Shown here piece by piece: positions 13,686 to 36,400 of a stretch of 64,000 nucleotides of DNA. The position numbers and the translations under genes are program-made. Positions within the stretch are counted from its first letter, which is position 1; each line of letters starts with the position of its first letter. A model generated the notes under the pieces. The model saw nothing but the letters and a program-made list of their open reading frames with translations, had not been told where the DNA came from and made no database searches. The stretch comes from Bacteroidales bacterium (GTDB lineage: Bacteria; Bacteroidota; Bacteroidia; Bacteroidales; UBA10428): positions 1,586 through 65,585 of the forward strand of contig JAWOJJ010000011.1 of NCBI GenBank assembly GCA_046481675.1, read 5' to 3'.

Positions 13686-14711
13686 ATGAGTGAGGGCCAG
13701 CTGAATATTGAAGACTTTTTATCCAGAAGCAGGGAGTGTCCGGTAATCGACGTCCGGTCTCCCGGAGAATTTGAACACGGCCATATTCCGGGAGCAATCA
13801 ATATTCCGATCTTTAGTAATGAGGAAAGGTCAGCGGTTGGAACACTCTACGTGAACAGGGGGTCTACAGATGCCATGATGAAGGGACTGGAAATTGTTGG
13901 TCCCAGAATGAAGGAATATGCTGAATTTGCGCTACGCATTGCTCCCCGCCGCGAGGCTCTGATGCATTGCTGGAGGGGAGGGATGCGGAGCAACAGCATG
14001 GCCTGGCTTTTTAATACAACAGGTGTAAAAACCTATACGTTATCTGGTGGATACAAGAGTTATCGCACCTATGTCAGAAATTACCTCTCAACTCCGCTGA
14101 AACTTGTTGTTATTGGCGGAATGACAGGCTCCGGCAAAACCGATGTACTTGAATATCTCGAATCACAAGGCGAGCAAATCATTCATCTTGAGCGTCTTGC
14201 CCGGCACAAGGGTTCGGTCTTCGGAGGTGTCGGAATGCCATCGCAACCCACTACGGAGCAATTTGAGAATGATTTGTTTGCCCGGCTTGTGGAACTGGAT
14301 CCACTAAAGCCTGTGTATGTTGAAAATGAAAGTCTGTTAATCGGCCGGGTTTTTATTCCCAAACCATTTTTTGAGCAAATGTCCGCTGCACCACTGGTTA
14401 AACTTTGTGTTCCTTTCGGGCGGCGTGTTTCGCAGCTTGTAAATACATATACATTAGGTGACCGGCAGCTGCTGGTTGAAGGCGTGAAAAGGATTGAACG
14501 CCGTCTGGGATTGGAAAATACAGCCAGGGCCATTGAACAAATTCAGAACGGAAACATGACAGCGGCAGTGGAAATTGCTTTGAAATATTACGACAGGATA
14601 TACTCACGGGCAAAGGAAATACCAAACCGAAAAGTTACGGAAGTGAAAATTGAACAGGAAAGCGTCCGGGAGATTGCAGAACGGCTAATTTCAATTAGTA
14701 ATAGAATTTAG
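13686..14711 (+). CDS. selU: tRNA 2-selenouridine(34) synthase (rhodanese + P-loop)
   Basis: Rhodanese domain IDVRSPGEFEHGHIPGAINIP with active-site loop HCWRGGMRS. A Walker A site follows (IGGMTGSGKT). Confidence 0.9.
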   Translation: MSEGQLNIEDFLSRSRECPVIDVRSPGEFEHGHIPGAINIPIFSNEERSAVGTLYVNRGSTDAMMKGLEIVGPRMKEYAEFALRIAPRREALMHCWRGGMRSNSMAWLFNTTGVKTYTLSGGYKSYRTYVRNYLSTPLKLVVIGGMTGSGKTDVLEYLESQGEQIIHLERLARHKGSVFGGVGMPSQPTTEQFENDLFARLVELDPLKPVYVENESLLIGRVFIPKPFFEQMSAAPLVKLCVPFGRRVSQLVNTYTLGDRQLLVEGVKRIERRLGLENTARAIEQIQNGNMTAAVEIALKYYDRIYSRAKEIPNRKVTEVKIEQESVREIAERLISISNRI

Positions 14712-14733
14712 GCTGTAGGCTGTAGGCTGTAGG
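14709..14733. repeat. Heptamer tandem repeat (TAGGCTG) x3.5 that starts on the selU stop codon
   Basis: Read directly: TAG GCTG TAG GCTG TAG GCTG TAG G. TAG triplets lie at 14709, 14716, 14723 and 14730. Confidence 0.9.
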
Positions 14734-14795
14734 ATTGTTGTTACTCAATACCGATTTGCATGTTGAAATAATTTAATCATTGAAATACTTAATTC

Positions 14796-15827
14796 ATGAA
14801 TAGCACTGAAATCCGACTTACGCAATTCAGTCCGGGTGCCGGATGCGGCTGTAAAATCTCACCTGCCGATCTTAGTGAAATTATAACCAAAGTCCCGGAT
14901 AACTCGCAATTCAAGTCGTTGCTGGTTGGCTGTAATTCACGCGATGACGCAGCTGTTTATGATTTGGGAAACGGCGAGGCAGTGATCAGCACCACTGATT
15001 TTTTTACACCCATCGTGGACGATCCGTGGGATTTTGGCAGAATTGCCGCGGCCAATGCCATAAGCGATATTTACGCCATGGGGGGTAGGCCGCTGATGGC
15101 CATTTCTATCCTGGGCTGGCCACTGGACAAGCTTCCGGCAGCTGTTGCGGGCAGGGTAATTGAAGGTGCGGCTGACCTTTGTCAAACTGCCGGAATACCT
15201 TTGGCAGGAGGTCATAGTATTGATATTTCCGATCCGGTATTCGGACTATCGGTAACCGGCATTGTAAAAAAGGAGCATGTCAGGAGGAACAACACAGCCA
15301 CGGAAGGATGCCGTCTTTTTCTTTCAAAACCGCTGGGCATTGGGATATATAGCACTGCATCAAAAAAGAACTTTCTGAATAATGAGGATTACCTGGTTTC
15401 GGTCAATTGGATGACCCGGCTCAATGATGCCGGAAGCGAACTGGGAAAACTTGATTGCGTGAAGGCCATGACCGATGTCACCGGGTTCGGTTTGCTGGGT
15501 CACCTGCTGGAAATATGCGAGGGAAGCGGGTTAAAAGCCCGTCTTCGCTTCAACAACATTCCCGTGCTCGATAACCTGAAGTATTACCTGGGTAAAAACT
15601 GCATACCCGGCGGAACCTATCGCAACTGGAAAAGTTACGGCACTAAGATTGGTGAAATGGACGAATTTCAGAAAATGGTGCTTGCGGACCCGCAAACAAG
15701 TGGAGGATTGCTGGTGGCAGTAGCTGAAAATGCACACGAATTTGATCTCCTGGCCGCAAAGTATGGGCTCAGTGAGATCGGCCTTCTTGAAAATGCCGGA
15801 TCTGATCCGGTCATCACAGTTGAATAG
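14796..15827 (+). CDS. selD: Selenide, water dikinase (selenophosphate synthetase), Cys-type
   Basis: N-terminal SPGAGCGCKISP (Cys, not Sec, at the catalytic position), then DDAAVYD and an AIR-synthase-like fold (TDVTGFGLLGH). Confidence 0.9.
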   Translation: MNSTEIRLTQFSPGAGCGCKISPADLSEIITKVPDNSQFKSLLVGCNSRDDAAVYDLGNGEAVISTTDFFTPIVDDPWDFGRIAAANAISDIYAMGGRPLMAISILGWPLDKLPAAVAGRVIEGAADLCQTAGIPLAGGHSIDISDPVFGLSVTGIVKKEHVRRNNTATEGCRLFLSKPLGIGIYSTASKKNFLNNEDYLVSVNWMTRLNDAGSELGKLDCVKAMTDVTGFGLLGHLLEICEGSGLKARLRFNNIPVLDNLKYYLGKNCIPGGTYRNWKSYGTKIGEMDEFQKMVLADPQTSGGLLVAVAENAHEFDLLAAKYGLSEIGLLENAGSDPVITVE

Positions 15828-16603: not shown

Positions 16604-16715
16604 AAGAGCCAAGAGCCAAGAATCAAGAGCCAAGAGCCAAGAGCCAAAAGCCAAAAGCCAAAAGCCAAAAGCTAACAGCTAACAGCCAACAGCTAAAGGC
16701 TAAAGGCTAAAGGCT
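16604..16715. repeat. 16-unit heptamer tandem array with stepwise unit drift; it overlaps the wbqC stop codon
   Basis: Hand-parsed units: AAGAGCC x2, AAGAATC, AAGAGCC x3, AAAAGCC x3, AAAAGCT, AACAGCT, AACAGCC, AACAGCT, AAAGGCT x3 (16 x 7 = 112 bp). The last units encode the final codons of wbqC and its TAG stop (complement of 16707-16709). Confidence 0.9.
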
Positions 16716-17336
16716 GCATTCCTTCAATACCTCTCTGGCCCTCGGCCCTTCGTTAAAAAGCAGGTCAATAGCACTCAGGTTGGAAATAAATCCATAACGT
16801 TCCTGGAACACCTGCTGATAGGGTATGAGTTTAAAACCGGGGTCGGGCATATTTAGCCTGTCCTTGGGGTGTATGCTGTTTCTGAAGTCTGCACCATTGT
16901 CACCATTTTTCTCAAAGTTGGTTGTAGGCAATGGCGTGCCCGGAATTTGGAATGTTTTCAGCAGAAAGTTGAGCAAATCCATGTTCCATTCATATAAAAA
17001 ACGGGTCCTGCGGGTATAAAACGTGTTGAAGTTATCGGCATAATATTCATAAAAAGCCGAAAGCCGGTAAGCTGATTCGATTGATTTCAGGTGAATTTTC
17101 TGCCAGTTTGTGGCATAGTCTATTTCAACCTCAGCAATGGGCATTTTATCCCCATGCATCTTCTTTACGGGAATCACCAGGCATTGCCTGCCATTGGCAC
17201 CATATATACAGCAACGGTTGCGGTACGATTGTTTCTGGTAATGCTCATGCTTTTCAATAAAAACATCGTCTCCGTATAAAAATTTGGAGAGGTACTGAAC
17301 GGGTGGGAGGTAAGCGGTGGAGAGAAGCAGGGACAT
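16707..17336 (-). CDS. WbqC-family protein
   Basis: LSTAYLPPVQYLSKF...IEKHEHYQKQSYRNRCCIYGANGRQCLVIPV is the characteristic WbqC-like N-terminus. Confidence 0.75.
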   Translation of the reverse strand: MSLLLSTAYLPPVQYLSKFLYGDDVFIEKHEHYQKQSYRNRCCIYGANGRQCLVIPVKKMHGDKMPIAEVEIDYATNWQKIHLKSIESAYRLSAFYEYYADNFNTFYTRRTRFLYEWNMDLLNFLLKTFQIPGTPLPTTNFEKNGDNGADFRNSIHPKDRLNMPDPGFKLIPYQQVFQERYGFISNLSAIDLLFNEGPRAREVLKECSL

Positions 17337-17525: not shown

Positions 17526-17567
17526 AACACCGAACACCGAACATTAAGCACCCTACAGCCTACAGCC
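17526..17567. repeat. Heptamer-phased array (AACACCG x2 ... TACAGCC x2) overlapping the larB stop codon
   Basis: aacaccg, aacaccg, aacatta, agcaccc, tacagcc, tacagcc. On the larB coding strand this reads ...AGG CTG TAG GCTGTAG G..., the same GGCTGTA unit found after selU. Confidence 0.8.
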
Positions 17568-18306
17568 TGTTAATCATACTCGCCAGAAATCCCGCGCCAA
17601 ATCCGTTGTCGATATTCACCACACTGGTTCCGCTGGCACAACTGGTAAGCATGCCCAGCAGCGCGGAGAGTCCTCCGAAATTGGCACCATAGCCCACGCT
17701 GGTGGGGACTGCAATTACCGGTTTATCTACCATGCCGCCAATTACGCTTGGCAGAGCTCCTTCCATGCCCGCAACCACTATGTTAACCCTGGCCTGCCGG
17801 ATCAGATCGATCTTGTTATACAGTCGGTGTATGCCGGCAACGCCAACATCAACAATGCGTTCAACCCGGTTTCCGAAAATCTCGGCAGTAACTGCTGCTT
17901 CTTCAGCCACCGGAAGATCAGATGTGCCGGCAGTAATCACTGCAATGAAAGTGGGTGGAGGGGGAATCTGTTTCCTGCGGACGGAAATGGTTCGGGCAGT
18001 TTCATTGTACAGGGCATCGGGACAAAACTCCCTGACCTTTTCATACATTTCGCATGTAACCCGGGTAGCCAGTATGTTGTTGTCCTGTGTGAGCATGTAG
18101 CGGATGATCCCTGCCACCTGATCGGGCGTTTTACCCTGCCCAAAGATTACCTCGGGATAGCCTGTACGCATTTCTCTGTTGTTATCAATGGTAGCATAGC
18201 CCAGTTCCTTGGATGTCAGGTCGTGAAGCTGTTCAAGCGCTTTGGAAACGTCAAGTTTTCCATCTCTCACTTCAGCAAGGAGTTTACTTAAAGATTCGTT
18301 GTTCAT
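17560..18306 (-). CDS. larB: Nickel-pincer cofactor biosynthesis protein LarB (pyridinium-3,5-biscarboxylic acid mononucleotide synthase; PurE-like)
   Basis: 248 aa. The N-terminal helical region (LEQLHDL...GYATIDNNREMRTGYPEVIFGQGK) is followed by a PurE/AIR-carboxylase fold (IAVITAGTSDLPVAEEA...VAGMEGALPSVIGG). Confidence 0.85.
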   Translation of the reverse strand: MNNESLSKLLAEVRDGKLDVSKALEQLHDLTSKELGYATIDNNREMRTGYPEVIFGQGKTPDQVAGIIRYMLTQDNNILATRVTCEMYEKVREFCPDALYNETARTISVRRKQIPPPPTFIAVITAGTSDLPVAEEAAVTAEIFGNRVERIVDVGVAGIHRLYNKIDLIRQARVNIVVAGMEGALPSVIGGMVDKPVIAVPTSVGYGANFGGLSALLGMLTSCASGTSVVNIDNGFGAGFLASMINRL

Positions 18307-19115
18307 GTTGGGGCTTGTTTTTTGTTTGTGTCAAAGCTGCCGCTTCGAAATCCCTCCATATCAATGGTGATGAATTCATATCCGAGTTCATGAAACCGCG
18401 AAACCACCCGGGCAGCTGTTTCAGGTTGCAGCAGTTCAGTCAGCCGTTCTTTTTCAATTTCAATACGGGCTATGTTGTTGTGGTTACGTACCCGGGAGGC
18501 AGCAAAACCAATAGAGGCAAGAAAACGCTCGGCTTTTTCAATTCTCCGGAGTTCCTCATTTTTAACAGTGTACTCGTATGGCAGCCGTGTCAGCAGGCAG
18601 GCATATGAAGGTTTATCGGCAGTAGGAAGCCCCAGCTCAGAAGAAAAATGACGCACCTCGGCTTTGGTAATTCCATTTTCCAACAAGGGGCTGCTGATGC
18701 CCAGTTCTTTCAGGGCTGCCAGCCCCGGCCGGTATATGCCATTGTCGTCATAATTGGTGCCATCGAGCAGGCTGGTATAGCCATCTTTTTGTGCTTCCTC
18801 TTTAAGAACGGCAAAAATGTGTTTCTTGCACAAATAGCATCTGTTTTCAGGGTTGTTGGCTATAGCAGGGAGCATTTCGGCCTGAATAATGCGCTGATTG
18901 ATGCTTCTCTCGCGGCAAAAGGCAATGGCTTCTTCTACTTCCCAATCAGGTATGTAGGGTGTTTTTACAGTAAAAGCGATTACTTTTTTGCCCAGGACCT
19001 TATCAGCAGTAGCTAACAGAAAGGTGCTGTCAACACCGCCTGAAAAGGCAATGGCTGCGCTTTCGAGCCGGCCCAGCCACTGAAGCAGCATGTCGTATTT
19101 TTCAGGATTGATCAT
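18303..19115 (-). CDS. larE: LarE, ATP-dependent sulfur transferase of NPN cofactor biosynthesis (PP-loop ATP pyrophosphatase)
   Basis: PP-loop AIAFSGGVDSTFL. Active-site Cys in PSYACLLTRLPY, plus an additional CxxC (NRCYLCKKH). 4-nt overlap with larB. Confidence 0.85.
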   Translation of the reverse strand: MINPEKYDMLLQWLGRLESAAIAFSGGVDSTFLLATADKVLGKKVIAFTVKTPYIPDWEVEEAIAFCRERSINQRIIQAEMLPAIANNPENRCYLCKKHIFAVLKEEAQKDGYTSLLDGTNYDDNGIYRPGLAALKELGISSPLLENGITKAEVRHFSSELGLPTADKPSYACLLTRLPYEYTVKNEELRRIEKAERFLASIGFAASRVRNHNNIARIEIEKERLTELLQPETAARVVSRFHELGYEFITIDMEGFRSGSFDTNKKQAPT

Positions 19116-20349
19116 GGGTGTCCTGTCTTTTTGAAAGCGCCTTTTCCACTTCGTGGTATACCTTGCTGATAGGTATTTGGTTTTGTCGTGCTATTTTGAT
19201 GCAATCGTCGTATTCGGGTTTCGATTTGATGCATACTCCCTGATAAAAAGCAAATTTCACCCTGACTTCTCCGAAACGGGTACTTATCTGTTCGATTTTC
19301 CGGTCGAGCATGGTTTTGTTAATAACATACCTTCGCACCCCAATGGTAGAGGTTTCCCTGAAAAGCACTTCATTAATACGGGTTTCATCCTCAGGTGTGC
19401 AGAGAATGGAAAGCTTCACAGCCGGCCTGGACTTCTTCATTATTATTGGTGTTATGAAAACATCTTTGGCGCCTGCTGAAAAAAGTGAATCAATGATGTA
19501 GTCATACAACTCCGGGTTCATATCATCGATATTACATTCAATAATAAAGGATGGGATTGTTGTTGTTTCATTTTCCCCGGAAGTCTCACAAATGTGAACG
19601 CGCAACACGTTGGGTAGAACTCCATCTTTGAACCCGATTCCATAACCTGTTTTCAGAATCCTGAAACTGGTTTTATCGGTAAATTCATTTACCAGTGCAG
19701 CCAGAATTGCAGCGCCGGTAGGTGTGGTGGCTTCATAATCCACAGTGCCTTTACGTACAGGCATGTTCTTTACCATTTCCGTGGTAGCTGGTGCAGGAAC
19801 AGGATACAAACCGTGGGCACATTGTACCATGCCTCCTCCCAGTTCAACCGTGGAACACTGAATTTTATCAGGAGCCAGATAATCCAGGCAAATGGCAGCA
19901 CCTACTATGTCAACAATGGAATCAACGGCGCCCACTTCGTGAAAATGAACATCGTCAACCGGTTTACCGTGTACTTTAGCTTCAGCTTCGGCAACTTTTC
20001 CAAAGATGGCCATACTCATATCTTTCACACTGCTACTGAGTTCCGAAGTCTCAATCATCCTGCGAATATCCTTGTAAGAATTGTGGTGATGGTGGTGCGT
20101 GTGGTCACTTCCGTGATGATGATGACCATGTTGATGCTGTGTCTGGTGTTCGCTGTCAATAACCACTTCCAGCCGTGTACCCGAAATGCCTTTCCGCATA
20201 TCTCTGACGGTTTTTATTTCGTAGCCATGCACGGGAAGCTTCCCCAGTTCCTTTTTCAGATAATCCAAATCAACACCCAGGTCGATTAGTGCACCCAGGT
20301 TCATGTCACCGGAAATACCGGCAAAACAGTCGTAATAAAGAATCTTCAT
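19102..20349 (-). CDS. larC: LarC, nickel insertion protein (pyridinium-3,5-bisthiocarboxylic acid mononucleotide nickel chelatase; DUF111)
   Basis: MKILYYDCFAGISGDMNLGALIDLGV is the canonical LarC N-terminus. A His-rich Ni-binding tract, HQTQHQHGHHHHGSDHTHHHHH, is encoded at 20083-20148. This is the full-length fused form. 14-nt overlap with larE. Confidence 0.9.
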   Translation of the reverse strand: MKILYYDCFAGISGDMNLGALIDLGVDLDYLKKELGKLPVHGYEIKTVRDMRKGISGTRLEVVIDSEHQTQHQHGHHHHGSDHTHHHHHNSYKDIRRMIETSELSSSVKDMSMAIFGKVAEAEAKVHGKPVDDVHFHEVGAVDSIVDIVGAAICLDYLAPDKIQCSTVELGGGMVQCAHGLYPVPAPATTEMVKNMPVRKGTVDYEATTPTGAAILAALVNEFTDKTSFRILKTGYGIGFKDGVLPNVLRVHICETSGENETTTIPSFIIECNIDDMNPELYDYIIDSLFSAGAKDVFITPIIMKKSRPAVKLSILCTPEDETRINEVLFRETSTIGVRRYVINKTMLDRKIEQISTRFGEVRVKFAFYQGVCIKSKPEYDDCIKIARQNQIPISKVYHEVEKALSKRQDTHDQS

Positions 20350-20663
20350 GCAGATCGGTTAAATAGCTGGTGAAATTATTAATATTTTTATTTTAAAGCG
20401 GATATTCTCTCACCTTCATTCGTTAAGAAGCTGTTAATCATCCGTAAATGCTGCGTTTTAATAAGTTAAATTCATGTTAATTCCGGTTAAATGCAGCAGG
20501 CAGATTTTTAGACGTCGCTGTAAGTCGCACAAAAACAGTCGGATATAACTATTTAGATTGAATTCAAATACTCGTATGGACACTGCAAATATGTGACAAA
20601 TTAGATATTTTTGGCATGGATTTTTCAGTTAAAGGGTCCTATTAAGAAATAATCATTAATTGT

Positions 20664-21593
20664 ATGAAACGAAGAGATTTTATCAGAAGATCAGTAGGGT
20701 TTGGGGTTATTTCAGGAGCTGCGCTTTCCATGGGCCGGTTCAGTGACCTTACGGCTGCCGAAACCGGAGCCTTGCAACTACCCTATGATATGGTTGCCAT
20801 TAAGGGTGGCGAAGCTGCTGAAATGTTTGATAAGGGAATTGCTTCTCTGGGTGGCATGAAGCAATTTGTGAAGCCAAATCAGACCGTGGTAATTAAACCC
20901 AATATCGGATGGGATTCGGCTCCTGAACGGGCTGCGAATACGAATCCCGATCTTGTTGCCCGTATTGTTGAACATTGCAAAAGAGCCGGGGCTAAGTCGG
21001 TTTATGTATTCGACAATACCTGTGCCGAAGCAACAAGATGCTATAAAATGAGCGGCATTGAGGATGCTGTAAAGAAAGCTGGCGGTACTATGGTTTCCGG
21101 CAAAAGTGCCACTTATTACCAGGATGTGACGCTGCCGAAAAGCAAAAGGCTAAAGAATGCCCGGGTGCACGAACTGATACTTGAATCCGATGTTTTCATT
21201 AACGTGCCGGTATTAAAGAACCATGGCGGATCTACCCTTTCCGTGGCCATGAAGAATTTGATGGGTGTTGTTTGGGATCGTGAATACTGGCACAGCAACG
21301 ACCTGCATCAGTGTATTGCCGATTTTGCAGCAAACCGCAAACCCGACCTGAATGTGGTTGATGCATACCGGGTGATGAAGCGTAACGGACCTCGCGGTGT
21401 TTCGGTTGCTGATGTTGCCACCCTGAAATACCAGATGATCGGCAAGGATATGGTTGCCATTGACACTGCAGCTGCCAAAGTGTTTGGCATTGATCCGAAA
21501 CAGGTAAAACATATCGGCCTGGCAGAAATGCTGGGTGCCGGCAGCACCAATATTGACGCCATGAAGATTAACAGGATAACCATGGGGGCATGA
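20664..21593 (+). CDS. Twin-arginine (Tat) signal DUF362 domain protein
   Basis: N-terminus MKRRDFIRRSVGFGVISGAALSMG matches the Tat consensus (RRxF + h-region). The body, VVIKPNIGW...NPDLVARIVEHC...INVPVLKNHGGSTLSVAMKNLMG, is the DUF362 pattern as I recognise it. Confidence 0.75.
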   Translation: MKRRDFIRRSVGFGVISGAALSMGRFSDLTAAETGALQLPYDMVAIKGGEAAEMFDKGIASLGGMKQFVKPNQTVVIKPNIGWDSAPERAANTNPDLVARIVEHCKRAGAKSVYVFDNTCAEATRCYKMSGIEDAVKKAGGTMVSGKSATYYQDVTLPKSKRLKNARVHELILESDVFINVPVLKNHGGSTLSVAMKNLMGVVWDREYWHSNDLHQCIADFAANRKPDLNVVDAYRVMKRNGPRGVSVADVATLKYQMIGKDMVAIDTAAAKVFGIDPKQVKHIGLAEMLGAGSTNIDAMKINRITMGA

Positions 21594-23152
21594 AACAAAA
21601 GCATCTCAAGCTAATCCGGGTTGTTTTAGCTGTCATTTTTCTGGTTGCTGTTGCGGCTCTGTTCGTTGACTTCAGGGAGCTGATACCCACGGTTTGGGCC
21701 GACCGCATCTTATTCATGCAGTTTGTGCCTTCGGTTGTTAAATTCATTACCATTCCTGCAGTGGTAACCGCCGGTTTTATCTTTGTCCTTATCCTCACCG
21801 CGCTGTTCGGACGTGTATATTGTTCCGTAATTTGCCCGCTGGGTATTTTTCAGGATGTGCTGGCCTGGTTTTCAAAAAAGTTTGGAATCGTCAAACGCTA
21901 TAAATTCAAAAAAGCGCTGAATTACCTACGCTATCCGTTTCTTGCAATTACTGTAATCTTTTTATTGTTTGGAAGCATGTTGATTCTGAACCTGCTTGAT
22001 CCTTACAGCAGTTTTGGAAGGATTTTTTCGGACATCATGCGACCCGGTGTTTTGGTTATCAATAACCTGCTGGCCGTTCTTTTTGAAAAATTTGAACTGT
22101 ATTTTCTTTACAGGTTCAACCTTCAGCTCATCACATGGCATGCGGTTCTTATTCCTGTGATTACGTTGATTCTTGTAAGCTGGCTGGCGGTGAAATACGG
22201 AAGGTTGTATTGCAATACCATTTGTCCTGTTGGAACACTGCTTGGGTTCGTTTCCAGGTTTTCTTTTTTCAGGATCAGCATGGATGCTTCAACATGTACC
22301 AAATGCGGAAAGTGTTCATTTGCCTGTAAATCGCAGTGCATTCATGTGAAAACACTTGAAGTTGATAATTCCCGCTGTGTGGCTTGTTACAACTGCATAT
22401 CCGTTTGCCCGGAAAGCAGCATTAAATATGTGCCGGTACTTTCAACCACCAAAAAGAATACAATCAAAACGGATGGTCCCAGGCGGAATTTCATCGCTAA
22501 AACTGTTGCTTACGGAGTGGGGCTAACAGGAATCTCTGCCACCATGCTGGCTCAGGAAGAAGATGACCGGCCGGCAGGAGAAATACCAAACAAAAAGAAT
22601 CATCCGGTTTCACCTCCCGGCTCGGTAAGTCTGAAGCATTTTACCGACCGGTGCACTGCATGTCATCTTTGCGTTTCGATCTGTCCTACCAGTGTTCTGC
22701 AACCTTCATTTTTGGAATACGGCTTTATGGGCATGTCACAGCCTCATATGGATTATGGTGTGGAATACTGCAATTTCGAATGTACCAAATGCGGCGAGGT
22801 TTGTCCTACCGGTGCCATATTACCCCTGACCGTTGAGGAGAAGAAACTGGAGCAAACAGGGCTGGTAAAACTCATCATTGAGAAATGTATTGTTTATACT
22901 GACAATACTGCATGCGGATCCTGTTCGGAACATTGTCCCACCCAGGCAGTCAGAATGGTGCCCTATAAAGAAGGATTAACCATCCCCGAAATCAATACGG
23001 AAATCTGTATCGGATGCGGAGCATGCGAATTTGCTTGTCCGGTTAAACCGCATACCGCCATATATATAGATGGAAATGCGGTACACCAGGTTGCTAAAGC
23101 GCCCCACATTGAGGAACTGAATCATGAATTTTCGGACGAATTTGCTTTCTGA
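21590..23152 (+). CDS. Membrane-bound polyferredoxin: a NapH-like module fused to a NapG-like 4x[4Fe-4S] module
   Basis: The N-terminal half has TM segments with two CxxxCP motifs (YCSVICPLG, YCNTICPVG) and two cluster motifs (CTKCGKCSFAC, CVACYNCISVCP). An internal RRNFIAKTVAYGVGLTGISATMLA segment follows. Four further motifs come after it (CTACHLCVSICP, CNFECTKCGEVCP, C-x9-CGSCSEHCP, CIGCGACEFACP). 4-nt ATGA overlap with the DUF362 gene. Confidence 0.8.
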   Translation: MKQKHLKLIRVVLAVIFLVAVAALFVDFRELIPTVWADRILFMQFVPSVVKFITIPAVVTAGFIFVLILTALFGRVYCSVICPLGIFQDVLAWFSKKFGIVKRYKFKKALNYLRYPFLAITVIFLLFGSMLILNLLDPYSSFGRIFSDIMRPGVLVINNLLAVLFEKFELYFLYRFNLQLITWHAVLIPVITLILVSWLAVKYGRLYCNTICPVGTLLGFVSRFSFFRISMDASTCTKCGKCSFACKSQCIHVKTLEVDNSRCVACYNCISVCPESSIKYVPVLSTTKKNTIKTDGPRRNFIAKTVAYGVGLTGISATMLAQEEDDRPAGEIPNKKNHPVSPPGSVSLKHFTDRCTACHLCVSICPTSVLQPSFLEYGFMGMSQPHMDYGVEYCNFECTKCGEVCPTGAILPLTVEEKKLEQTGLVKLIIEKCIVYTDNTACGSCSEHCPTQAVRMVPYKEGLTIPEINTEICIGCGACEFACPVKPHTAIYIDGNAVHQVAKAPHIEELNHEFSDEFAF

Positions 23153-26808: not shown

Positions 26809-29457
26809 ATGAGAAATTTCAACCTGATTACACTTATTCCAGTTCTGTTTATGGTGACGGCAATGATGTCGTGTTCCAAATCAACCGATGCGATGAATGA
26901 AAAAATACTGCTGAAGGATAACTGGCGGGTACAGCGATCCAAAGAGCTGATCAATCTTCCCGGTTCTTTTATCTCAGGAACAGTCATTGATACCTCATTA
27001 TGGTTTCCTGCACAGGTACCTTCCACCATAATGGGTGTGCTTACGGGTAACGGATTGTTTAAAGACCTTTTCTATGATGACAGTTTAAAACGTGTAAACA
27101 AAGAACCATTTGAGGACTCATGGTGGTATCGTACTGAATTCAGGCTTCCCCGGATAAAGGAGGAACAACAGGTGATGCTCAATTTTGATGGCATCAGCTA
27201 CTATGCAAACATTTGGCTGAACGGTGTTCTGATCGCATCACGGGATAGTGTTTACGGAACTTTCAGAAGATTTGAGTTCAATATAACCGGGCTGATTCAG
27301 GACACTACGAATATACTGGCTGTGGAAGTATTCAAACAACAACCCGGAGATTTCGGACATGGGTTTGTCGACTGGAATCCCCCGCCTCCCGATGATAATA
27401 TGGGCATCTGGCGCGAGGTTTACCTGAAAATAACCGGAGATGTTGCCTTGAAAAACACCGTTGTTCAGACGGATGTAAATACCGAAACGCTGGATGAAGC
27501 GAGCCTTACCATTAAAACAGAGGTGATCAATTATTCACAGCGCGCAGTCAGTGGCAAACTAATCGGCAAAAGCGAGGATTTTGAGTTCAGCATTCCGGTT
27601 CATCTGAAAGCCGGCGAACGCAAACAGGTTACCCTGAATTCCGATGAAATCAGTGATTTGCACATTCAGCATCCAAGGCTTTGGTGGTGCAACAACATGG
27701 GAACACCTAATCTTTACAATCTTTCGCTTAAATATGAGACCAACAATTCAGTCAGCGATGAACAGAACATTACTTATGGCATCAGGGAGGTTGAAACTTA
27801 CTTGAACAATGAAGGCCACAGGGGATTCAAGCTTAACGGGAAAGAGTTGTTGATCCAGGGTGCAGGATGGACTGATGATATTTTTCTGAGAGACACAGAG
27901 GAGCGCAATGAAATACAGGTCAGGTATGTTCGCCATATGAACCTGAATACCATAAGGTTTGAAAATATTTGGGGAACAAGCCAGCATATTTATGATTTGT
28001 GCGACAGGTATGGAATTCTGGCCATGGTTGGATGGAGTTGTCAATGGGAATGGGAAAATTACCTGGGTAAGCCGTGTGATGATTTTGGGGGAATCAAGAC
28101 AATAAAGGACATGGACCTCATGGTTGAATCACTGGAACACCAGATCCGCTACCTGCAGAATCATCCTGCTATATTTGTGTGGATGCTGGGCAGCGATAAA
28201 CTGCCCAGACCGGCTCTGGAAAAAAGGTATTTGGACCTGATCCGGGCAATTGATGACAGACCCGGTGTTTCCGCAGCCAGTAAGCGCAGCAGCAAAATCA
28301 GCGGGCCTACCGGTGTAAAAATGAACGGGCCCTACAATTATGTCGGACCTTCATACTGGTATATCGATTCTGTTAACGGCGGCGCTTTCGGGTTCAATAC
28401 AGAAACAGGCCCCGGCCCCCAGTTGCCGGTTTTGGAGTCGATCAAAAAAATGCTTCCCGAAGAGAAGCTTTGGCCGGTAAATGAAAGCTGGAATTACCAC
28501 TGCAATCCTTCTGAAAGCTTCCAGGATCTGAAAATTTTCAGCGAGGTGATGGATAATCGATACGGGCAAGCCAATAACCTGGAAAGTTACCTGATGAAAG
28601 CCAATGTACAAAGTTATGAAACCATAAGGGGTATGTTTGAAGCCTTCAGAACAAACCGGCCGAATACCACCGGAATTATCCAGTGGATGCTGAATTCGGC
28701 ATGGCCTTCGTTTTACTGGCAGTTGTATGACTATTACCTGTTGCCCACTCCGGCATATTATGCTGTTAAAAAAGCCAATGAACCGTTACAGCTCATTTAT
28801 AACTATGGCAACCACACAGTTTATGCGGTTAACAGTACGCTCAAGCGGTATGCCAATGCACGGGCGGGGTACAGGATGTTTGATCTGCAGGGCAAGGAAC
28901 TGTTTTCTGATGAACAGGTAGTTAAACTTGAGGAAAATCAATCGTCAAAACTTTTCAAACTTCCCGCAAATTACAGCACGGTATTTCTGAAGCTTTCCCT
29001 GCTGGATGAAAACAACAGTGAAATAGCTGAAAACTTTTACTGGTTAGCGGGCAAACCTGATGTGTATGACTGGGAAAAGACGAATTGGTTTTATACACCG
29101 GTTAAGTACAGTGCCGACCTGAAATCGCTCAACTACCTGCCTGCAGCTGAAGTGGAAGTTAATGCCGGATTTGAAAAAAGTGACGAGCTTGAAAGCCTGA
29201 TTAAAGTAACCCTCACCAACAAATCAAACAGGGTTGCATTTTTCACCTGTCTGACCGTAAGGAACAGCAACAACGAAACCATCCGGCCTGTATTTTGGAA
29301 TGACAATTATGTCAGCCTTTTACCAGGTGAGTCAGAAGTGCTGCAATGCCTGATCCCGGGAAGCCAGTTGCCCGAAAATACGGAGTTGCTGGTTTCGGGC
29401 TGGAACGTGAAAGAACAGACGGTGAAGCTGACCGTTAAAACTGAGGGCAGGGAATAG
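26809..29457 (+). CDS. Glycoside hydrolase family 2 (beta-mannosidase / exo-beta-D-glucosaminidase-like), probable lipoprotein
   Basis: Lipobox MMSC. GH2 sugar-binding N-domain (LKDNWRVQRS...WWYRTEFRLP...MLNFDGISYYANIWLNGVLI), then a TIM-barrel segment (NLNTIRFENIWG...FVWMLGSD). The size, 882 aa, fits. Confidence 0.7.
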   Translation: MRNFNLITLIPVLFMVTAMMSCSKSTDAMNEKILLKDNWRVQRSKELINLPGSFISGTVIDTSLWFPAQVPSTIMGVLTGNGLFKDLFYDDSLKRVNKEPFEDSWWYRTEFRLPRIKEEQQVMLNFDGISYYANIWLNGVLIASRDSVYGTFRRFEFNITGLIQDTTNILAVEVFKQQPGDFGHGFVDWNPPPPDDNMGIWREVYLKITGDVALKNTVVQTDVNTETLDEASLTIKTEVINYSQRAVSGKLIGKSEDFEFSIPVHLKAGERKQVTLNSDEISDLHIQHPRLWWCNNMGTPNLYNLSLKYETNNSVSDEQNITYGIREVETYLNNEGHRGFKLNGKELLIQGAGWTDDIFLRDTEERNEIQVRYVRHMNLNTIRFENIWGTSQHIYDLCDRYGILAMVGWSCQWEWENYLGKPCDDFGGIKTIKDMDLMVESLEHQIRYLQNHPAIFVWMLGSDKLPRPALEKRYLDLIRAIDDRPGVSAASKRSSKISGPTGVKMNGPYNYVGPSYWYIDSVNGGAFGFNTETGPGPQLPVLESIKKMLPEEKLWPVNESWNYHCNPSESFQDLKIFSEVMDNRYGQANNLESYLMKANVQSYETIRGMFEAFRTNRPNTTGIIQWMLNSAWPSFYWQLYDYYLLPTPAYYAVKKANEPLQLIYNYGNHTVYAVNSTLKRYANARAGYRMFDLQGKELFSDEQVVKLEENQSSKLFKLPANYSTVFLKLSLLDENNSEIAENFYWLAGKPDVYDWEKTNWFYTPVKYSADLKSLNYLPAAEVEVNAGFEKSDELESLIKVTLTNKSNRVAFFTCLTVRNSNNETIRPVFWNDNYVSLLPGESEVLQCLIPGSQLPENTELLVSGWNVKEQTVKLTVKTEGRE

Positions 29458-30448
29458 CCCTTATTTTTTTCCGTTTCGATTGCTGGTTTTCAAATTTGTA
29501 ATTAACCGAAATTTCGTGAGATCCCCCTGTAGTATTAATTAAACGCGACATGGTAAGATCGTAGCTGTATGCGAATGACAGGGAACCAGTTTGGTAACCT
29601 GCCAGCAAGGTAAGGGCATCTTTTGTTTCAGTATTGGATATCAAAGGTATTCCCCTGTACCAGATACCAATGATGAATGGTGCATTGGTGTGGTATAAAC
29701 CCAGGTCAAGCTGATGAATTCTCTCCTGTGTTTTGTAATGAAATGCCAGGGTAATGTTTTTTTCGGTTTTGGTAATGTGTGCACGGCTCAGCATGTCAAA
29801 CATGATACCGCCGTAGGCCGAAAACATAAAGGGGGCATATTCCTGTTGCGCCGGTATGTTCTGGTTTAGTTTCATCAGATGATTTCCGGTGATGCCAAGC
29901 CAGATATTGTCAGTGAAAACAAGGCCTGAAACAGCAAAGTCAAAATGGTGATATTTTTCGTTATCAATGGTTTCAATTGACCCGCCGGGTAAAACTCTCC
30001 CGTTAACAATCTGGTCAGAAAAAATAAGCGCATTGCTGTTGATTCTTTTTGAAAAAAATTGTGCCTGTATGCCGGGAACCAAATGCCATTTCTGATTTAT
30101 ACTGATCCGGTATGAATACTGCGTTGACAGGTACAACGAATTCATCAAACCTGCAGCATCGTCATACATTATGGAAAGCCCTGCTCCAAGTTTATACTTC
30201 TCGATATACTTATCTGCAAAAAAGGAAGTAGTTAAAAAGGATTGAGGTAATTGAAGCCATTGCGAGCGGAAATTCATCCCCAGTCGCGGAACTCCGGCAG
30301 AGCCTGCAAATGAAGGGCCCAGATAAAGGGGGGCAGAATAAAACTGCGACAATTGAGGATCCTGTGCGGAAACAACCGTCATACTGTATTGGGTGCCTGT
30401 AAGAACCAATAATATCAGTAAAAATCTCAATGGTTTATTTCCTTTCAT
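29435..30448 (-). CDS. PorP/SprF-family type IX secretion system membrane protein
   Basis: Signal peptide, then QDPQLSQFYSAPLYLGPSFAG, and a C-terminal GGSHEISVNYKF...IPCPQF ending typical of PorP/SprF beta-barrels. It lies 18 nt downstream of the giant type-B CTD gene. Confidence 0.85.
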   Translation of the reverse strand: MKGNKPLRFLLILLVLTGTQYSMTVVSAQDPQLSQFYSAPLYLGPSFAGSAGVPRLGMNFRSQWLQLPQSFLTTSFFADKYIEKYKLGAGLSIMYDDAAGLMNSLYLSTQYSYRISINQKWHLVPGIQAQFFSKRINSNALIFSDQIVNGRVLPGGSIETIDNEKYHHFDFAVSGLVFTDNIWLGITGNHLMKLNQNIPAQQEYAPFMFSAYGGIMFDMLSRAHITKTEKNITLAFHYKTQERIHQLDLGLYHTNAPFIIGIWYRGIPLISNTETKDALTLLAGYQTGSLSFAYSYDLTMSRLINTTGGSHEISVNYKFENQQSKRKKIRAIPCPQF

Positions 30449-30466: not shown

Positions 30467-33400
30467 TTATCTGACAAGCAAAACCGAGCCGGTAAGGATG
30501 AAATCAGAACCGCTCACATATTTGCCTGTGACTTTCCATACGTATACATCCTGAGCAAGCAATTGTCCTTTATAATATCCATCCCATCCTGTTTTGACGT
30601 CATCACTTTCGAAAAGCAGTACGCCCCATCTGCTGTATATCTCAAGGTGATATTCAGCAATGTTTTCGTGATAAGGGAAGAATACATTGTTGGAACGGTC
30701 ATTTTCGTTGTATATACCGCCGCTTGGTCCCGACGGGTCGGGGGTGAATGCATTCGGGAAAACCAACAAGCCGTCTTCGGCTACAAAAATATCATGTGAA
30801 ATGGTGTCTTTGCAGCCAAATTCAGATGCAACAACAAGGGTTATTCTATAATTTCCGCTGGTGCTGTAATAATGCAACGGATTTGATTCAGATGTATACT
30901 GGTTATCTCCAAAGTCCCAATGATATGTCGAGACATTATAGGAGTCATCATCATAACATCTTACCGGTTTATTCACAAAAGCTGTGTCAGGTCTGAAGTA
31001 GAATCGGGCAACAGGATTGCTGTGGATGGTGATCAGGGTATCAACAGTCACATTTTTGTTATCAGGTCCGTAAGCAATCATGTTTACTTTGTATTGACCG
31101 GCATAATTGTATGTATGTGTCGGGTTTACTTCTGTGGTGAAAGTGCCATCGCCCATATCCCACCTATATGTTGTTCCATATTGTGTTGTATTATAGAATT
31201 CAACTGTTGTCCCCGGGCAGCCTTCGGTAATGTCTGTAATAAATCCGGCCCTGGGCATCACCTTGTAGTTAATGACAACCTGGTCACGTGCTACACAGCT
31301 GCCATTGGTGATTGTCCATTCAAAAGTATTCAATCCTGCCCCCAATGAAGCAACCCGTGTTGTAAAGCCGGATGGTGTTTCTATAGACCCAGCTCCTGCA
31401 ACCAGAATCCATTCTCCGGTTCCGCTTGCCGGGTTGTTACCTGACAGCATCACCTGGGGTTCATAAGTATCTTTGTCCTCACCCGCATATACATAAGCCA
31501 GGTTATTGATAACCGTGATTTCATCTATTGTAAGGCATTGCCCGTTTTGTGTTGTCCAGCGCAAGGTATTCTCTCCGAAATTCAACCCATTGACAGTGGT
31601 ATTAAAGCTCAGGGAATCACTAAAGTCGCCTTTGCCACTCATTACCTGCCAGAATCCATAACCAACCACTGGTGAATTTGCATACAGAACGGCTGTTTCA
31701 CCGCATACCTCCGCATCTTCACCGGCTTCGGCTATTGATGGTGAATTGTTGGTGATCATCAACTCATCAGAAGAGCTGCAATTCTTGTTGGTTATGGTCC
31801 ATACCACGATATTTTCGCCCAGTGCAAGCTCACTGATTGTTGTTCGTGGCAATGTCCGATTGGCAATGCTACCTGAACCGCTCATCAGTGACCATTCACC
31901 AATTCCATGCATTGGCGTATTGGCACTTAATGTTCCCATGCTGTTACAAACCGCAAAATCGGAACCTGCAACTGCCACGGAAGGAAGATTATTGGAAATC
32001 TGAACGGTATCTGTAACAGAACAACCCGTTGTGGCAACAGTCCATTTCAGTTTATTAATGCCGTTACGGAGCAGGCTGACCGAAGTATTGTATTGGAACG
32101 GATCGTCAAACACTGCTGAACCCTGTAAAACTGTCCAGTAACCATTGCCCAGACTTGGCGGATTGGCGTAAAGTACCGTGTTGTCGGCACATAGTTCCTG
32201 GTCAAGGCCTGCATATACATCCACCGGGAGGTTGTTGTAAATTACCACTTCATCGGTAGTGATACAGCCTTCATTTTCACTGGTCCACCTCAGGATATTA
32301 GCACCGGAGCCCAGAGATGAAACTACAGCCAACGGATTATTCTGATTTGAAAAAGAGCCCGAACCGCTTATAACCGACCAGGTGCCGGTTCCCTGCGAAA
32401 TGGTATTGGCCCTGAGTTGTTGCTCATCCTGGCAGAGGTACATGTCTTCACCTGCAAAAGCCCGGGTAGGCAAATTATTGGTTAATGTAACTTCATCATA
32501 TGATATGCAGCTGTTTTTAGCGATGGTCCACCTGAGCACGTTGGCCCCCGGGGCGAGGTTTTCAACCACCGAATTGGGGGTATGCGGATTCAGTATATCA
32601 GCTCCGTTGGCTGTGCCAACTATGGTCCAGAAGCCCCCACTGTAACCGGGATCGTTAGCCTGAAGCGTCGTCCGGTCGGCACACATCACCTGGTCAGCTC
32701 CGGCATCTGCCTGAACGAAATCGTTGCTGATTATTACATCGTCATATGAAATACATTCCATATAAGTTGTGGTCCACCTGAAAACATTTTCTCCCGGTGC
32801 AAGTTCCCTGGCGTAGGTTGAAGAACTGCTCATGTCATCCAGTATAGCCGATCCGCTTTGTAATGTCCAGGAACCGTTACCGGTACCAGGCTGGTTGGCG
32901 ATCAACAGCACGGAATCCTGGCAAACCGACTGGTCAGCTCCCGAGCGGGCTGTAGTTGGCTTGTGAGATGTTATGATAACTGTATCCCGCGAATAGCAGC
33001 CGGCATTCCGGATGCTGTATACAAGGTAATTCTCATCCCTTCCCAAATCATAGACAAGATTGCCTGCAAATTTAGCAGCACCTGAATATACGCTCCATTC
33101 ACCTGTTCCAAAAGTTGGCGTGTTAGGATGCAGAACCAGAGAATCTTCACAGATAACAGCGTCAAAGCCTGCTTCGGCATCTGTTGGTGTATTGTTGGTA
33201 ATTGTAACAACCGACGAAGATGTGCAGGTCCCGTTTGTAATGGTCCATTTGAGATTGTTATTTCCCCTGGCGAGGTTTTTGACATTGGTTATGTTATTGT
33301 TAGCATTATCAAAGGTACCGGCCCCGCTTATTACACTCCACTGACCGCTACCGATATAGGGCAGGTTGGCGTTCAGATTCACGGAATCTGCACAGACACT

Positions 33401-36400
33401 CAGGTTAACACCTGCATTTGCTGCGGTGGGCATGTCGTTGATGATGATCACCGAATCGGACGTAGTTCCATTCAGATAGGCCGTCCACACGAGCACATTT
33501 TCACCCTGTGCCAGGTTATAGGCATAGGTATTGTACAGAGAGTTATCTGCAAAACTAGCCGATCCGCGTTTTACCGACCATTCACCGTAACCGGGGTAGG
33601 GATTTTTAGCGTTGAGTCTTACTGTACTGCTACAAATTACCTGGTTTGGGCCGGCATCTGTAGTATCGGTAAGTATGTTTTCAATGACAACTGTATCGGC
33701 AGACACACAACCGGCATGGGTGATCATCCATTCGAAGATATTGCGTCCTTTTCCAATATTGGTTAAAAGTGTATTGTAGGCAAATCTGTCGGTAATCGTC
33801 GCTGATCCGCTCAGGAGTGACCATGAACCTGAACCTGTGGCCGGATTGTTGGCGTTCAGATTGGTATTGTCAGCATGGATGCGTTGATCAGGTCCTGCTT
33901 CAGATTCTGTAGGCCTGTTGTTAGTTATAATCACAGAATCATAGCTGACACAACCATTGTGGTTAACCGACCACCTGAAGATGTTTCTTCCCTGTGACAA
34001 ACCGGAAACAAGCGTGTTCGGATCATACCGGTTGATGTTGTATCCTGATCCGGAGGTGATTGACCATTGCCCGGTTCCGGCGGAAGGCAGAGCAGCGTTG
34101 AGTCTGTATATATGGTCACAGATTGAAGTATCGTTACCGGCTTCAACAACCAGTTGGTTGTTATACAGAGTAACTGTGTCAGTTACGCTGCAGCCGTTAA
34201 GAGTTACTGTCCAGGTAAAAGGATTTGCCCCCTGTCTCAAATTACTTACAGTTGTGACAGCCTGGTCGGAATGCTGGATCACTGCAGGTCCGGTTATTGC
34301 CTGCCACAGTCCGGTTGCAGGGAATTCAGGTTGTACAGCATTCAACGTTCCTTTGTCAGAACAAATTCCGATGTTTTCACCACCATAGGCCAAAGGTAAG
34401 GGATTGGCAACTACGTTCAGAATTGGAGACGAAGGTCCGGAACCGCAAACATTTACCCCCGATACGCTAATCGGACCGCCATACTCGTTTTTCACATACA
34501 TAACCTGTATCTGGCGGGTATTTTGTCCGGATATTACTGTCATTCCGGGAGGCAATGTCCATTGATAGTAATCTGCACCGGGTATGTCTGCTATCATATA
34601 GGTAATACCCGAAGCGCCCTGGCATACAATGCTTTCTCCGGTTATGGCACCGGCTGCTTCAGGATATGCATTCACCTGAAGCACTGCAGGCTGGCTGTTA
34701 ACAATTCCGCAAACGCCGCTGATTACACAGCGGTAGGAACCTGCATCTGTTGCAGTGATATTACTGATCAGCAACAATGAAGATGCCGAACCATTGATCT
34801 GTGTATCATCAGCCAATGGAATCCCGTCTTTTTCCCAACGATAGGTGATTGAATCACCGGTGGCAGCAATACTGAACAGAACCGATTCGCCTTCACATCG
34901 AATGAGGTTCTCAGGTTGTTTGTTAACCTGAACGGGGCTGTTTACCAACACCGGGATTGCTCCGGTTACAACAGTACCACATGAACCTGTGACGTTGCAT
35001 GAATAAAATCCTGCCTGTGCGGGAATGATGTTGTTAATTACAAGTGATGAGGTGGTAGTTCCGGTTATACCATTGCCATCGATAATGGAAATACCATCGC
35101 GAAACCACTGATAATTCAGGTTACTTCCGTTAGCAGAAACCGACAATGTTATCGACTGACCTGCGCACAGTGTATCTCCTGTTGGGATTCCTGTAATGGT
35201 CAGCGATTCATAAACCGTAAGTTCAGCAGCGTCTGAATTGTGTATTATACCGCAACCATCCGTTACCACGCAGCGGTAAAGTCCCTGGTCGGAATTTATC
35301 AGTTCGGTTATGGTGAGGTATGGCATCTGGGAGCCTGTTATTCTGGCATCGTCAATTAATGCTGTGCCGTTGAATTCCCATTGGTAAGTCAGCTTGTTGC
35401 CCGTGGTTGCCACCCTGAAATTAGCCTGCTCACCTAAACATTCCTGCACATCAACCGGATGATCTGTAATTTGTCCTGCCTGATTTACTGCCAGAGTTGC
35501 TGGATCTGAATTTGCTGTTCCACAACTGTTCACCACCTCGCAGGTGTAAATCCCTGTATAAGAGGGAACGAGGTTTTCCAGGTATAAGGATGCTGTGGCA
35601 GCTCCGGAAATACCACTACCATCGGAAATCACTACACCGTTTTTCTTCCAGGTAAATACCGGGCTGTCGCCTACAGCAGTCAGCTGCATCAGATGATTTC
35701 CACCCTGGCAAACAGTTGCATCGGCAGGATGATTTGTGATGGAGGGCGGTACGGTTACAGTAATCGTGGCAGACTCTGAAGAAATACTGTTGCAACTGCC
35801 TGAAACAATACAGTGGTAAACGCCTGAGAACATAGGAGTGGCATGGCTTATGTGAAGTACAGAAGAAGTGGCTCCGGATATATCTCCGCCATTAGTGAGT
35901 GGCACGTTATCTTTCATCCATTGCCAGGTGTTGCCATCACCCTTTGCAAGAGCAGTTAGCGAAAAGTCAGAGCCATTACAAATGTTCTTGCTTTCGGGTT
36001 GTTCAATAATACTTGTTGCTTCTTCTACTACAAGAACTGCAGGATTAGTCATTACATTCTGACAGGAGCTGCTAACCATGCATTGGTAGGTTCCGCTTTC
36101 TTCAAATGTGACATTACTTGTAACCAGTGTAGCGGAAGATGTCCCGCTATACCGGGCATTGTCGGAAAGAGCAACTCCGTCTTTCATCCATTGCCATGAT
36201 AAAATGCTTCCTGTAGCCGCTGAGGTAAAGGTGTAAGAATTGCCTTCACAGATGGTATTCCCGGCAGGTTGAACCGTAATTACCGGTTCGTCATATACGT
36301 TCAGTGTTGCAGGGTTGCTGATTAGTGTATTGCACGGTCCGGTAACAATGCATTGATAATTGCCGTGGTCAGCGGTCTGCAGGTTTTTTATCTGCAATAC

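Follow-up and report, generated by a model that had tools for sequence, protein, structure and literature searches.

We analyzed a 64-kb stretch of a Bacteroidales genome (contig JAWOJJ010000011.1, hereafter the window) in which larC, larE and larB, the genes for synthesis of the cofactor nickel-pincer nucleotide (NPN), lie beside a divergent gene pair encoding a DUF362 protein and a membrane polyferredoxin. The DUF362 protein appears to be a shorter member of a sister family of LarA, not a LarA itself, in which the core of the cofactor site is retained. We think it rather probable that this protein binds NPN and that it does so with a particular layout, being loaded in the cytoplasm, exported by twin-arginine translocation (Tat), and trading electrons with the quinone pool by way of the polyferredoxin. 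As established for homologues, LarB, LarE, and LarC make NPN in the cytoplasm, and the known LarA enzymes use it for a "hidden" redox isomerization of 2-hydroxyacids, acting as racemases or epimerases. To our knowledge very few NPN enzymes have been described, namely the LarA racemases/epimerases and, since 2025–26, one family of aldo-keto reductases and a single cyclodeaminase. In hundreds of genomes NPN is made and no user of it is known.

The modeled DUF362 protein has the fold of the LarA family

The DUF362 gene (20664–21593, + strand) encodes a protein of 309 amino acids that matched the DUF362 profile PF04015 with 179 bits (E = 1.5e-52, cut-off 24) and covered profile positions 1–200 fully. 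PF04015 was its sole Pfam match even at E ≤ 10, and neither PF09861 nor PF21113 (LarA_C) was matched. The N-terminus, MKRRDFIRR, contains a twin-arginine motif accompanied by a hydrophobic stretch (MKRRDFIRRSVGFGVISGAALS). The Tat motif is present in 159 of the 168 DUF362 orthologues that we collected, and almost every one of them retains the RR pair. From this N-terminal sequence, the protein is predicted to be exported by Tat and hence to be periplasmic.

DUF362 and DUF2088, the family to which LarA belongs, share Pfam clan CL0471, and DUF362 has been used there just as an outgroup (PMC11770544). Against the DUF362 model of Pfam, genuine LarA proteins reached 26 bits (E = 1e-5), again with the cut-off at 24, in a match covering LarA residues 82–245. 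The preliminary description of this locus had proposed a structural comparison with LarA, and its outcome was favorable. The DUF362 protein was modeled by AlphaFold from an alignment of 95 sequences (31% to 95% identity); the model had a pLDDT of 94.1 and a pTM of 0.87, and when it was compared with the PDB by Foldseek the top 19 matches were all LarA-family proteins (E from 1e-6 to 6e-5, probability 1.00, TM 0.38–0.53). These alignments comprised 164 to 296 columns, mostly 226 to 296, and the matches included LarA of L. plantarum, Isosphaera, and Thermoanaerobacterium, malate racemase, single-histidine LarA-like enzymes, and 4NAR. The first match outside the LarA family was approximately 60-fold weaker (E = 3.5e-3). 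An earlier model derived from an 18-sequence alignment was rejected (pLDDT 66, ambiguous fold search). Sequence-only searches of the PDB with the DUF362 protein and two DUF362 profiles gave no meaningful match, and a hidden Markov model of the DUF362 subfamily did not significantly match any of 123 LarA sequences. The relation between LarA and DUF362 is thus visible at the level of the fold and of the Pfam profile alone.

Conserved residues of DUF362 align with cofactor-site residues of LarA

In LarA the cofactor is bound by K184 and H200, together with R75, and the catalytic residues are D72, H108, H174, and K298 (PMC7583248). The best local profile-profile alignment placed residues 87–199 of DUF362 on residues 76–186 of LarA, with D176, H187, and K197 on D163, H174, and K184, respectively. 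The same pairing recurred with two LarA alignments and in the local hmmsearch match. The global mode of hhalign was useless for this comparison and was discarded. Nine residues (K78, N80, D117, K185, H187, K197, R206, H210, and D233) are invariant in the 168 DUF362 orthologues, independently of whether the locus is linked to lar genes or not, and D176, H187, K197, and H210 are at least 90% conserved in the 95 sequences of 31% to 95% identity. H210, which closes the second short helix after K197 in the model, may correspond to the LarA nickel ligand H200. The protein has only 2 conserved cysteines, and no Fe-S, Mo, haem, or Cu motif was found in it.

The DUF362 protein is paired with a NapH-NapG-like polyferredoxin

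The polyferredoxin gene (21590–23152, + strand; 520 amino acids, Fer4_5 and Fer4 families) overlaps the DUF362 gene by 4 nucleotides. Counting of cysteine motifs bore out the 6 [4Fe-4S] motifs that had been described for this protein. Its N-terminal NapH-like part has 4 strongly hydrophobic transmembrane helices, 2 CxxxCP motifs, and 2 [4Fe-4S] motifs predicted to be cytoplasmic. An internal twin-arginine pair (RR298–299) follows, then a weakly hydrophobic fifth helix, which remains under the hydropathy threshold that helices 1 to 4 pass, and then 4 further [4Fe-4S] motifs. All 29 cysteines of the protein are 100% conserved in 72 homologues, in which R299 and F301 are conserved in 97% and 83%, respectively. 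The best NCBIfam matches were to NapH/MauN, NapF, and NapG, all below cut-off (85 bits against 213 for NapH/MauN, 78.5 against 234 for NapH, and 58 against 269 for NapG), and because the scores for NapH, NapG, and NapF are well under their cut-offs the polyferredoxin is not a Nap orthologue. Its arrangement is that of the NapH-NapG fusions targeted by both Sec and Tat, and the NapG-like four-cluster domain is predicted to be periplasmic. In such a protein from the delta proteobacterium MLMS-1 (MLMS-1 PFD), Tooke et al. (2017) found that the first 4 helices need Sec (PMC5449189), and the requirement of the fifth helix and the Fe-S domain for Tat was shown experimentally (PMC5449189).

Of 80 species-level loci, 78 have the DUF362 and polyferredoxin genes side by side, and both exceptions lie at contig ends. 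The species concerned belong to the Bacteroidota, Ignavibacteriota, Desulfobacterales, Chlorobi, Kryptoniota, and Gammaproteobacteria. The 2 proteins evidently form one functional unit.

The window encodes NPN synthesis and no canonical LarA

The 3 lar genes are on the – strand. larB (17560–18306) encodes the nicotinic acid adenine dinucleotide (NaAD) carboxylase/hydrolase that catalyzes the first step of NPN synthesis and scored 303 bits on its NCBIfam equivalog (NF033503, cut-off 175). larE (18303–19115), for the ATP-dependent sulfur insertase, scored 294 bits (equivalog TIGR00268, cut-off 150). larC (19102–20349), for the CTP-dependent nickel insertase, matched PF01969 with E = 1e-151 and passed both NCBIfam models, LarC1 with 220 bits (cut-off 90) and LarC2 with 164 bits (cut-off 50); a His-rich stretch is present in the protein (HQHGHHHHGSDHTHHHHH). 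In the map of open reading frames (ORFs), larB overlaps larE by 4 nucleotides and larE overlaps larC by 14, exactly as had been claimed, and the coordinates likewise agree with the reported divergent spacer of 314 nucleotides, the Tat-signal DUF362 gene beyond it, and the short overlap of that gene with the polyferredoxin gene. The translation of larE contains an SGGVDS P-loop and a CXXC...C motif (CYLC plus YACLL) in place of the single sacrificial cysteine of L. plantarum LarE. This motif has been associated with the catalytic [4Fe-4S] type of LarE and not with the sacrificial type (PMC9283937), and because of it the LarE of the window is probably of the catalytic, oxygen-labile type. The spacer (20350–20663) presumably holds promoters for both directions. 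On our reading, TATTTTTG at 20606–20613 fits the Bacteroidetes –7 consensus TAnnTTTG and is a candidate promoter element. No Rfam family matched the spacer, either at the gathering threshold or at E ≤ 1, and an Rfam search of the window likewise gave nothing.

A search of the whole window in any frame by tblastn with 3 LarA queries, among them L. plantarum LarA (identical to PDB 5HUQ), gave a best match of only E = 0.75. None of the scanned window ORFs of at least 200 amino acids matched PF09861 (Lar_N). An aldo-keto reductase (PF00248) was found neither among these ORFs nor among the called genes of loci L161–L172 (L numbers designate the loci of our collection). In total, the window and 174 loci yielded neither a LarA nor an aldo-keto reductase. 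The preliminary description had stated that no ORF of the window resembles LarA, and this holds for LarA proper; because DUF362 belongs to a sister family, and the protein is a distant homologue of the LarA N-domain, the statement that a LarA-like domain is lacking needs qualifying.

lar genes recur beside the DUF362-polyferredoxin pair in several gene orders

We scored linkage to lar genes within a flank of up to 10 kb around DUF362-polyferredoxin loci. In a set with one genome per species, lar genes were found near the pair in 17 of 71 assessable loci, and in a metagenome scan in 24 of 59. Overall, 41 of 130 assessable loci have lar genes next to the pair, with 3 gene orders and at least 2 phylum-level lineages represented, so that the neighborhood census proposed in the preliminary description turned out favorable to a link. 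After the polyferredoxin, the commonest conserved neighbors of DUF362 include larC and larB; a WbqC-like gene and the gene of a small membrane protein, both described below, are equally frequent.

All lar-linked loci of the Bacteroidota have the divergent layout of the window. They fall on at least 4 separate branches of the DUF362 tree, interspersed with unlinked loci, and the flanks outside the lar/DUF362 block vary between clades. The second order, DUF362-polyferredoxin-larC-larE-larB on one strand, was found in Competibacteraceae (L058 and the complete genome CP065007.1, L163) and in L166/L167. Most gaps in these loci are of a few to approximately 100 bases, with larB, and in L166 also larC, a few hundred bases off. 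The third order, larC-larE-larB-DUF362-polyferredoxin, was found in 2 contig families of 73% to 74% GC (L164/L165 and L171). We estimate that a random 3-kb operon in a genome of approximately 4 Mb would lie within 10 kb of a given gene in well under 1% of cases, and inherited synteny by itself accounts poorly for 3 different orders of which 2 resemble operons.

The census was also performed in reverse, starting from larC genes 56% to 75% identical to that of L058, which occurred in 9 distinct contexts. The full five-gene module was present in 4 of these, the polyferredoxin gene with larC only in 2, and larC alone in 1, and in the remaining 2 the contig ended just past larB. LarA was found in none of the 9 contexts. 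One of these situations is illustrated by Ca. Competibacter denitrificans (L161/L162), where DUF362, larE, and larB are all absent from an otherwise syntenic locus. L161 has the same flanks (DUF423 and HAD genes upstream, polA downstream) as L163, where the module is complete, and the gap in L161 could be due to joint loss of the 3 genes or to their relocation. In 7 lar-linked loci (L002, L004, L007, L010, L011, L032, and L059), larC directly adjoins larB without larE in between, and in these genomes larE must either sit elsewhere or the pathway must be incomplete. As these loci show, lar genes can lie scattered in such genomes, and a lack of adjacency is therefore a poor indication that they are absent.

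A proposed periplasmic NPN enzyme and the alternatives to it

In the mechanism that we propose, apo-DUF362 would receive NPN in the cytoplasm, where K197, at the position of the LarA tether K184, would hold the cofactor, probably together with H210 as the putative counterpart of the nickel ligand H200, and H187, at the position of H174, would serve as acid/base. The NPN-loaded protein would then be exported folded via Tat, and loading before export would explain why the DUF362 protein has a Tat signal and no other cofactor motif. Once in the periplasm, it would dock on the co-translated polyferredoxin at its NapG-like domain of four clusters, perhaps at the site that the absent LarA C-domain would occupy. 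By analogy with MLMS-1 PFD, the polyferredoxin would be inserted by Sec for helices 1 to 4 and by Tat for helix 5 and the Fe-S domain, and it would link the NPN site either with the menaquinone pool or with donors in the cytoplasm. The outcome would be a periplasmic NPN-dependent oxidoreductase whose net redox chemistry is coupled to the electron-transfer chain. By analogy, the substrate could bear a C-H/C=O group, as a hydroxy acid, a sugar, or an alcohol does. Because the lar genes and the DUF362-polyferredoxin pair travel together in several lineages, a new NPN user linked to electron transfer is probable, and the earlier proposal of the pair as a candidate NPN client finds support in the LarA fold, in the Pfam cross-match, and in the neighborhood census. 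That proposal had itself called divergent adjacency alone weak evidence. Also in favor are the conserved residues aligned with the LarA active site, the tight pairing of DUF362 with the polyferredoxin, the class of the polyferredoxin, and the joint absence of DUF362, larE, and larB from the locus of Ca. Competibacter denitrificans. In a farther-reaching version, DUF362 would be the major client so far lacking for orphan larBCE genes, with NPN wired to Fe-S clusters, and its Tat-exported form would be the first periplasmic NPN enzyme of respiratory type, performing net redox chemistry coupled to electron transfer, possibly with one-electron nickel steps, beyond internal hydride shuttling. This version we put forward tentatively, as possible but open to real doubt.

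Several observations weigh against NPN binding by DUF362 or against the layout proposed for it. At the level of the residues, the hhalign alignment of LarA and DUF362 is non-significant on its own (E about 0.2), and its low-confidence extension aligns H210 elsewhere than on LarA H200. The spacing from lysine to histidine is 13 in DUF362 (K197–H210) and 16 in LarA homologues. LarA H108 aligns with a conserved tyrosine, Y127; R75 has no clear counterpart, the aligned DUF362 position being non-conserved; and the LarA C-domain, including the K298 region, is absent from the DUF362 protein. As to the chemistry, no flavin or other obvious converter between two-electron and one-electron transfer stands between a hydride cofactor and the Fe-S clusters. 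At the level of the genes, no lar gene was found within the flank in 54 of the 71 and 35 of the 59 loci. The Bacteroidota cases may count as few independent events because one arrangement is common to all of them. In L012, L016, and L018 the WbqC-like gene, DUF362, and the polyferredoxin gene are retained and the lar block is cleanly absent, and the pair of Parabacteroides distasonis (51% identity) has no lar gene in 24 kb. The fragment carrying this last pair was the sole DUF362-polyferredoxin yield of a plasmid collection; the LarC matches in that collection came from irrelevant taxa and were set aside. Finally, intact polyferredoxin-larC pairs exist without DUF362, larE, or larB at the locus (L161/L162 6276–9200 and L169 3083–5875), which might hint that the polyferredoxin relates to LarC and not to DUF362.

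The gene-level points can be read as meaning that adjacency reflects only inherited gene order or shared regulation, that DUF362 uses another cofactor or a bare metal, and that the lar genes serve a LarA, an NphT-type enzyme, or another client elsewhere in the genome. Most DUF362-polyferredoxin loci lack a lar gene within the flank, the single Bacteroidota arrangement extends to the flanking WbqC-like gene, and in L012, L016, and L018 this gene still adjoins DUF362 in the absence of lar genes, as plain synteny predicts. We consider this explanation unlikely, since the linkage recurs in 2 co-directional, operon-like orders of high-GC bacteria and lar genes are among the commonest conserved neighbors of the pair. 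In addition, DUF362 has the fold of an enzyme family that is defined by NPN, with histidine and lysine at the positions of LarA H174 and K184, and neither a LarA nor an aldo-keto reductase turned up in the window or the 174 loci as the alternative client.

The polyferredoxin-larC pairs that persist without DUF362, larE, and larB in L161/L162 and L169 fit instead with a role of DUF362 and the polyferredoxin in cofactor supply, for example as a periplasmic or membrane redox module that acquires or handles nickel or keeps the Lar machinery reduced, and the probable oxygen-labile [4Fe-4S] nature of the LarE of the window points in the same direction. Such an accessory role seems quite improbable to us. 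LarB, LarE, and LarC by themselves have sufficed to reconstitute NPN synthesis (PMC13524815), LarA-type operons need no such module, a Tat-exported protein with the LarA fold would be ill-placed to aid a cytoplasmic pathway, and the invariant lysine/histidine pattern suits cofactor binding better than metal trafficking. That the WbqC-like protein is the true lar partner in Bacteroidota, as a client or a cofactor-modifying enzyme, with the DUF362-polyferredoxin pair as a bystander, can be set aside as very improbable, since its gene, which does follow larB in 27 of 29 Bacteroidota loci with gaps often of 6 to 20 nucleotides, is absent from every high-GC lar/DUF362 operon, is kept where the lar genes are missing (L012, L016, and L018), is separated from larB by 223 nucleotides in the window, and encodes a protein with no detectable relation to any NPN enzyme.

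Comparison of the DUF362-polyferredoxin module with known systems

An NPN-binding DUF362 would differ from the LarA/DUF2088 superfamily (5HUQ, 9EID, 6D6Z, 9Q3J, 4NAR) in spite of the fold that the window protein shares with it over approximately 230 to 290 positions. The likeness comprises the common Pfam clan, the cross-match of LarA to the DUF362 model, the histidine and lysine at the H174 and K184 positions, and the location of the DUF362 gene beside larBCE. The window protein, however, has 309 amino acids and LarA about 424, and because DUF362 is approximately 150 residues shorter, the C-terminal substrate-binding domain with K298 is missing. Some LarA homologues likewise have only one catalytic histidine (PMC12393405). 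The Tat signal, with its predicted periplasmic location, and the obligate Fe-S partner belong to DUF362 and not to LarA, and such a partner implies net electron transfer instead of isomerization.

LarA-family enzymes had been taken in the preliminary description as the only characterized users of NPN, which is outdated, as the NphT family of aldo-keto reductases and an NPAD-dependent ornithine cyclodeaminase are now known as users beyond LarA (PMC13524815). NphT was found via a gene beside larBCE at a locus without larA, it has, like DUF362, a conserved His/Lys pair whose role in holding the cofactor is proposed or has been shown, and it extends NPN chemistry past racemization. In contrast to DUF362, it has an unrelated TIM-barrel fold, is cytoplasmic, has no Fe-S partner, and is biochemically characterized, whereas an NPN-dependent role of DUF362 is predicted only. 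The NphT study was aimed at proteins that are not homologous to LarA, and its main text is silent on DUF362 and ferredoxins (PMC13524815).

The polyferredoxin of the window resembles MLMS-1 PFD and NapGH in its 5 helices, the twin-arginine motif before a weak fifth helix, the CxxxCP motifs, and the 2 plus 4 cluster motifs. It differs from them in that its partner is DUF362, which is not mentioned in PMC5449189, and in that no nap genes are nearby. The proposed module would also be like MsrPQ, a comparison that has been drawn for related polyferredoxin fusions (PMC5449189): both would have a cofactor loaded in the cytoplasm, a catalytic subunit exported by Tat, and a membrane partner feeding from the quinone pool. 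The proteins are non-homologous, with Mo and haem b in MsrPQ against the proposed NPN and Fe-S clusters here.

In the published literature that we searched, DUF362 is tied to the NPN cofactor nowhere except as an outgroup. What is new is thus a protein of the LarA clan that is predicted to use the pincer cofactor and yet is truncated, exported, and wired to an Fe-S chain. If DUF362 does bind NPN, a cofactor and a function that can be tested would be assigned to a very large uncharacterized family, and part of the puzzle of larBCE without larA would be explained. NPN would also be found outside the cytoplasm, a first for this cofactor, and joined to a quinone-coupled Fe-S chain, a chemistry new for it. 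Among the candidates scored, the family forms at least 8,000 clusters when grouped at 90% identity; grouping at 50% identity gives at least 5,810 with E ≤ 1e-3. None of 7 long DUF362 representatives was a fusion with a polyferredoxin. The DUF362 representative P0126 (778 amino acids) has a C-terminal DUF362 domain and an N-terminal part that weakly resembles PMT_2 membrane glycosyltransferases. DUF362-CBM9-dockerin proteins have been reported from a metagenome (PMC5742341), and extracytoplasmic DUF362 domains may act on carbohydrates.

Neighboring genes and other features of the window

The WbqC-like gene of the window (16707–17336, – strand; PF08889, E = 1.1e-32) lies downstream of larB on the same strand. 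The 29 Bacteroidota lar-linked loci in which its position was scored are those with sufficient flank, and the ones in which it directly follows larB include L002–L004, L007, L010, L011, L032, L033, L036, L037, L059, L076, and L088. It is possible that this gene is a fourth member of the lar operon in Bacteroidota. No solved relative of the protein was found, nor any useful literature on it. In 25 lar-unlinked loci from Ignavibacteriota and some Bacteroidales, a gene for a multi-helix membrane protein of approximately 175 amino acids is divergent from DUF362 (L017 3601–4104, L021 9385–9936, L043 9385–9939, L068 6504–7028, and 21 others). This protein, which matched no Pfam or NCBIfam family, could be another partner of the DUF362 module.

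Elsewhere in the window, a 678-amino-acid ORF (1057–3093, + strand) had no Pfam match at E ≤ 0.001. Adjacent genes at 13686–15827 (+ strand) encode a rhodanese-domain protein (341 amino acids) and an AIRS-family protein (343 amino acids), which by their Pfam domains look like tRNA 2-selenouridine synthase and selenophosphate synthetase. An ORF of 4,205 amino acids (30467–43084, – strand) is located directly upstream of a gene for a PorP/SprF membrane protein of type IX secretion (29435–30448, – strand) and probably encodes a giant surface protein secreted by this system. An agmatine/peptidylarginine deiminase of Porphyromonas type, a carbon-nitrogen hydrolase, and an Orn/DAP/Arg decarboxylase are encoded near one another (44442–46438 and 50387–51619, both – strand), which suggests a route from arginine to putrescine.

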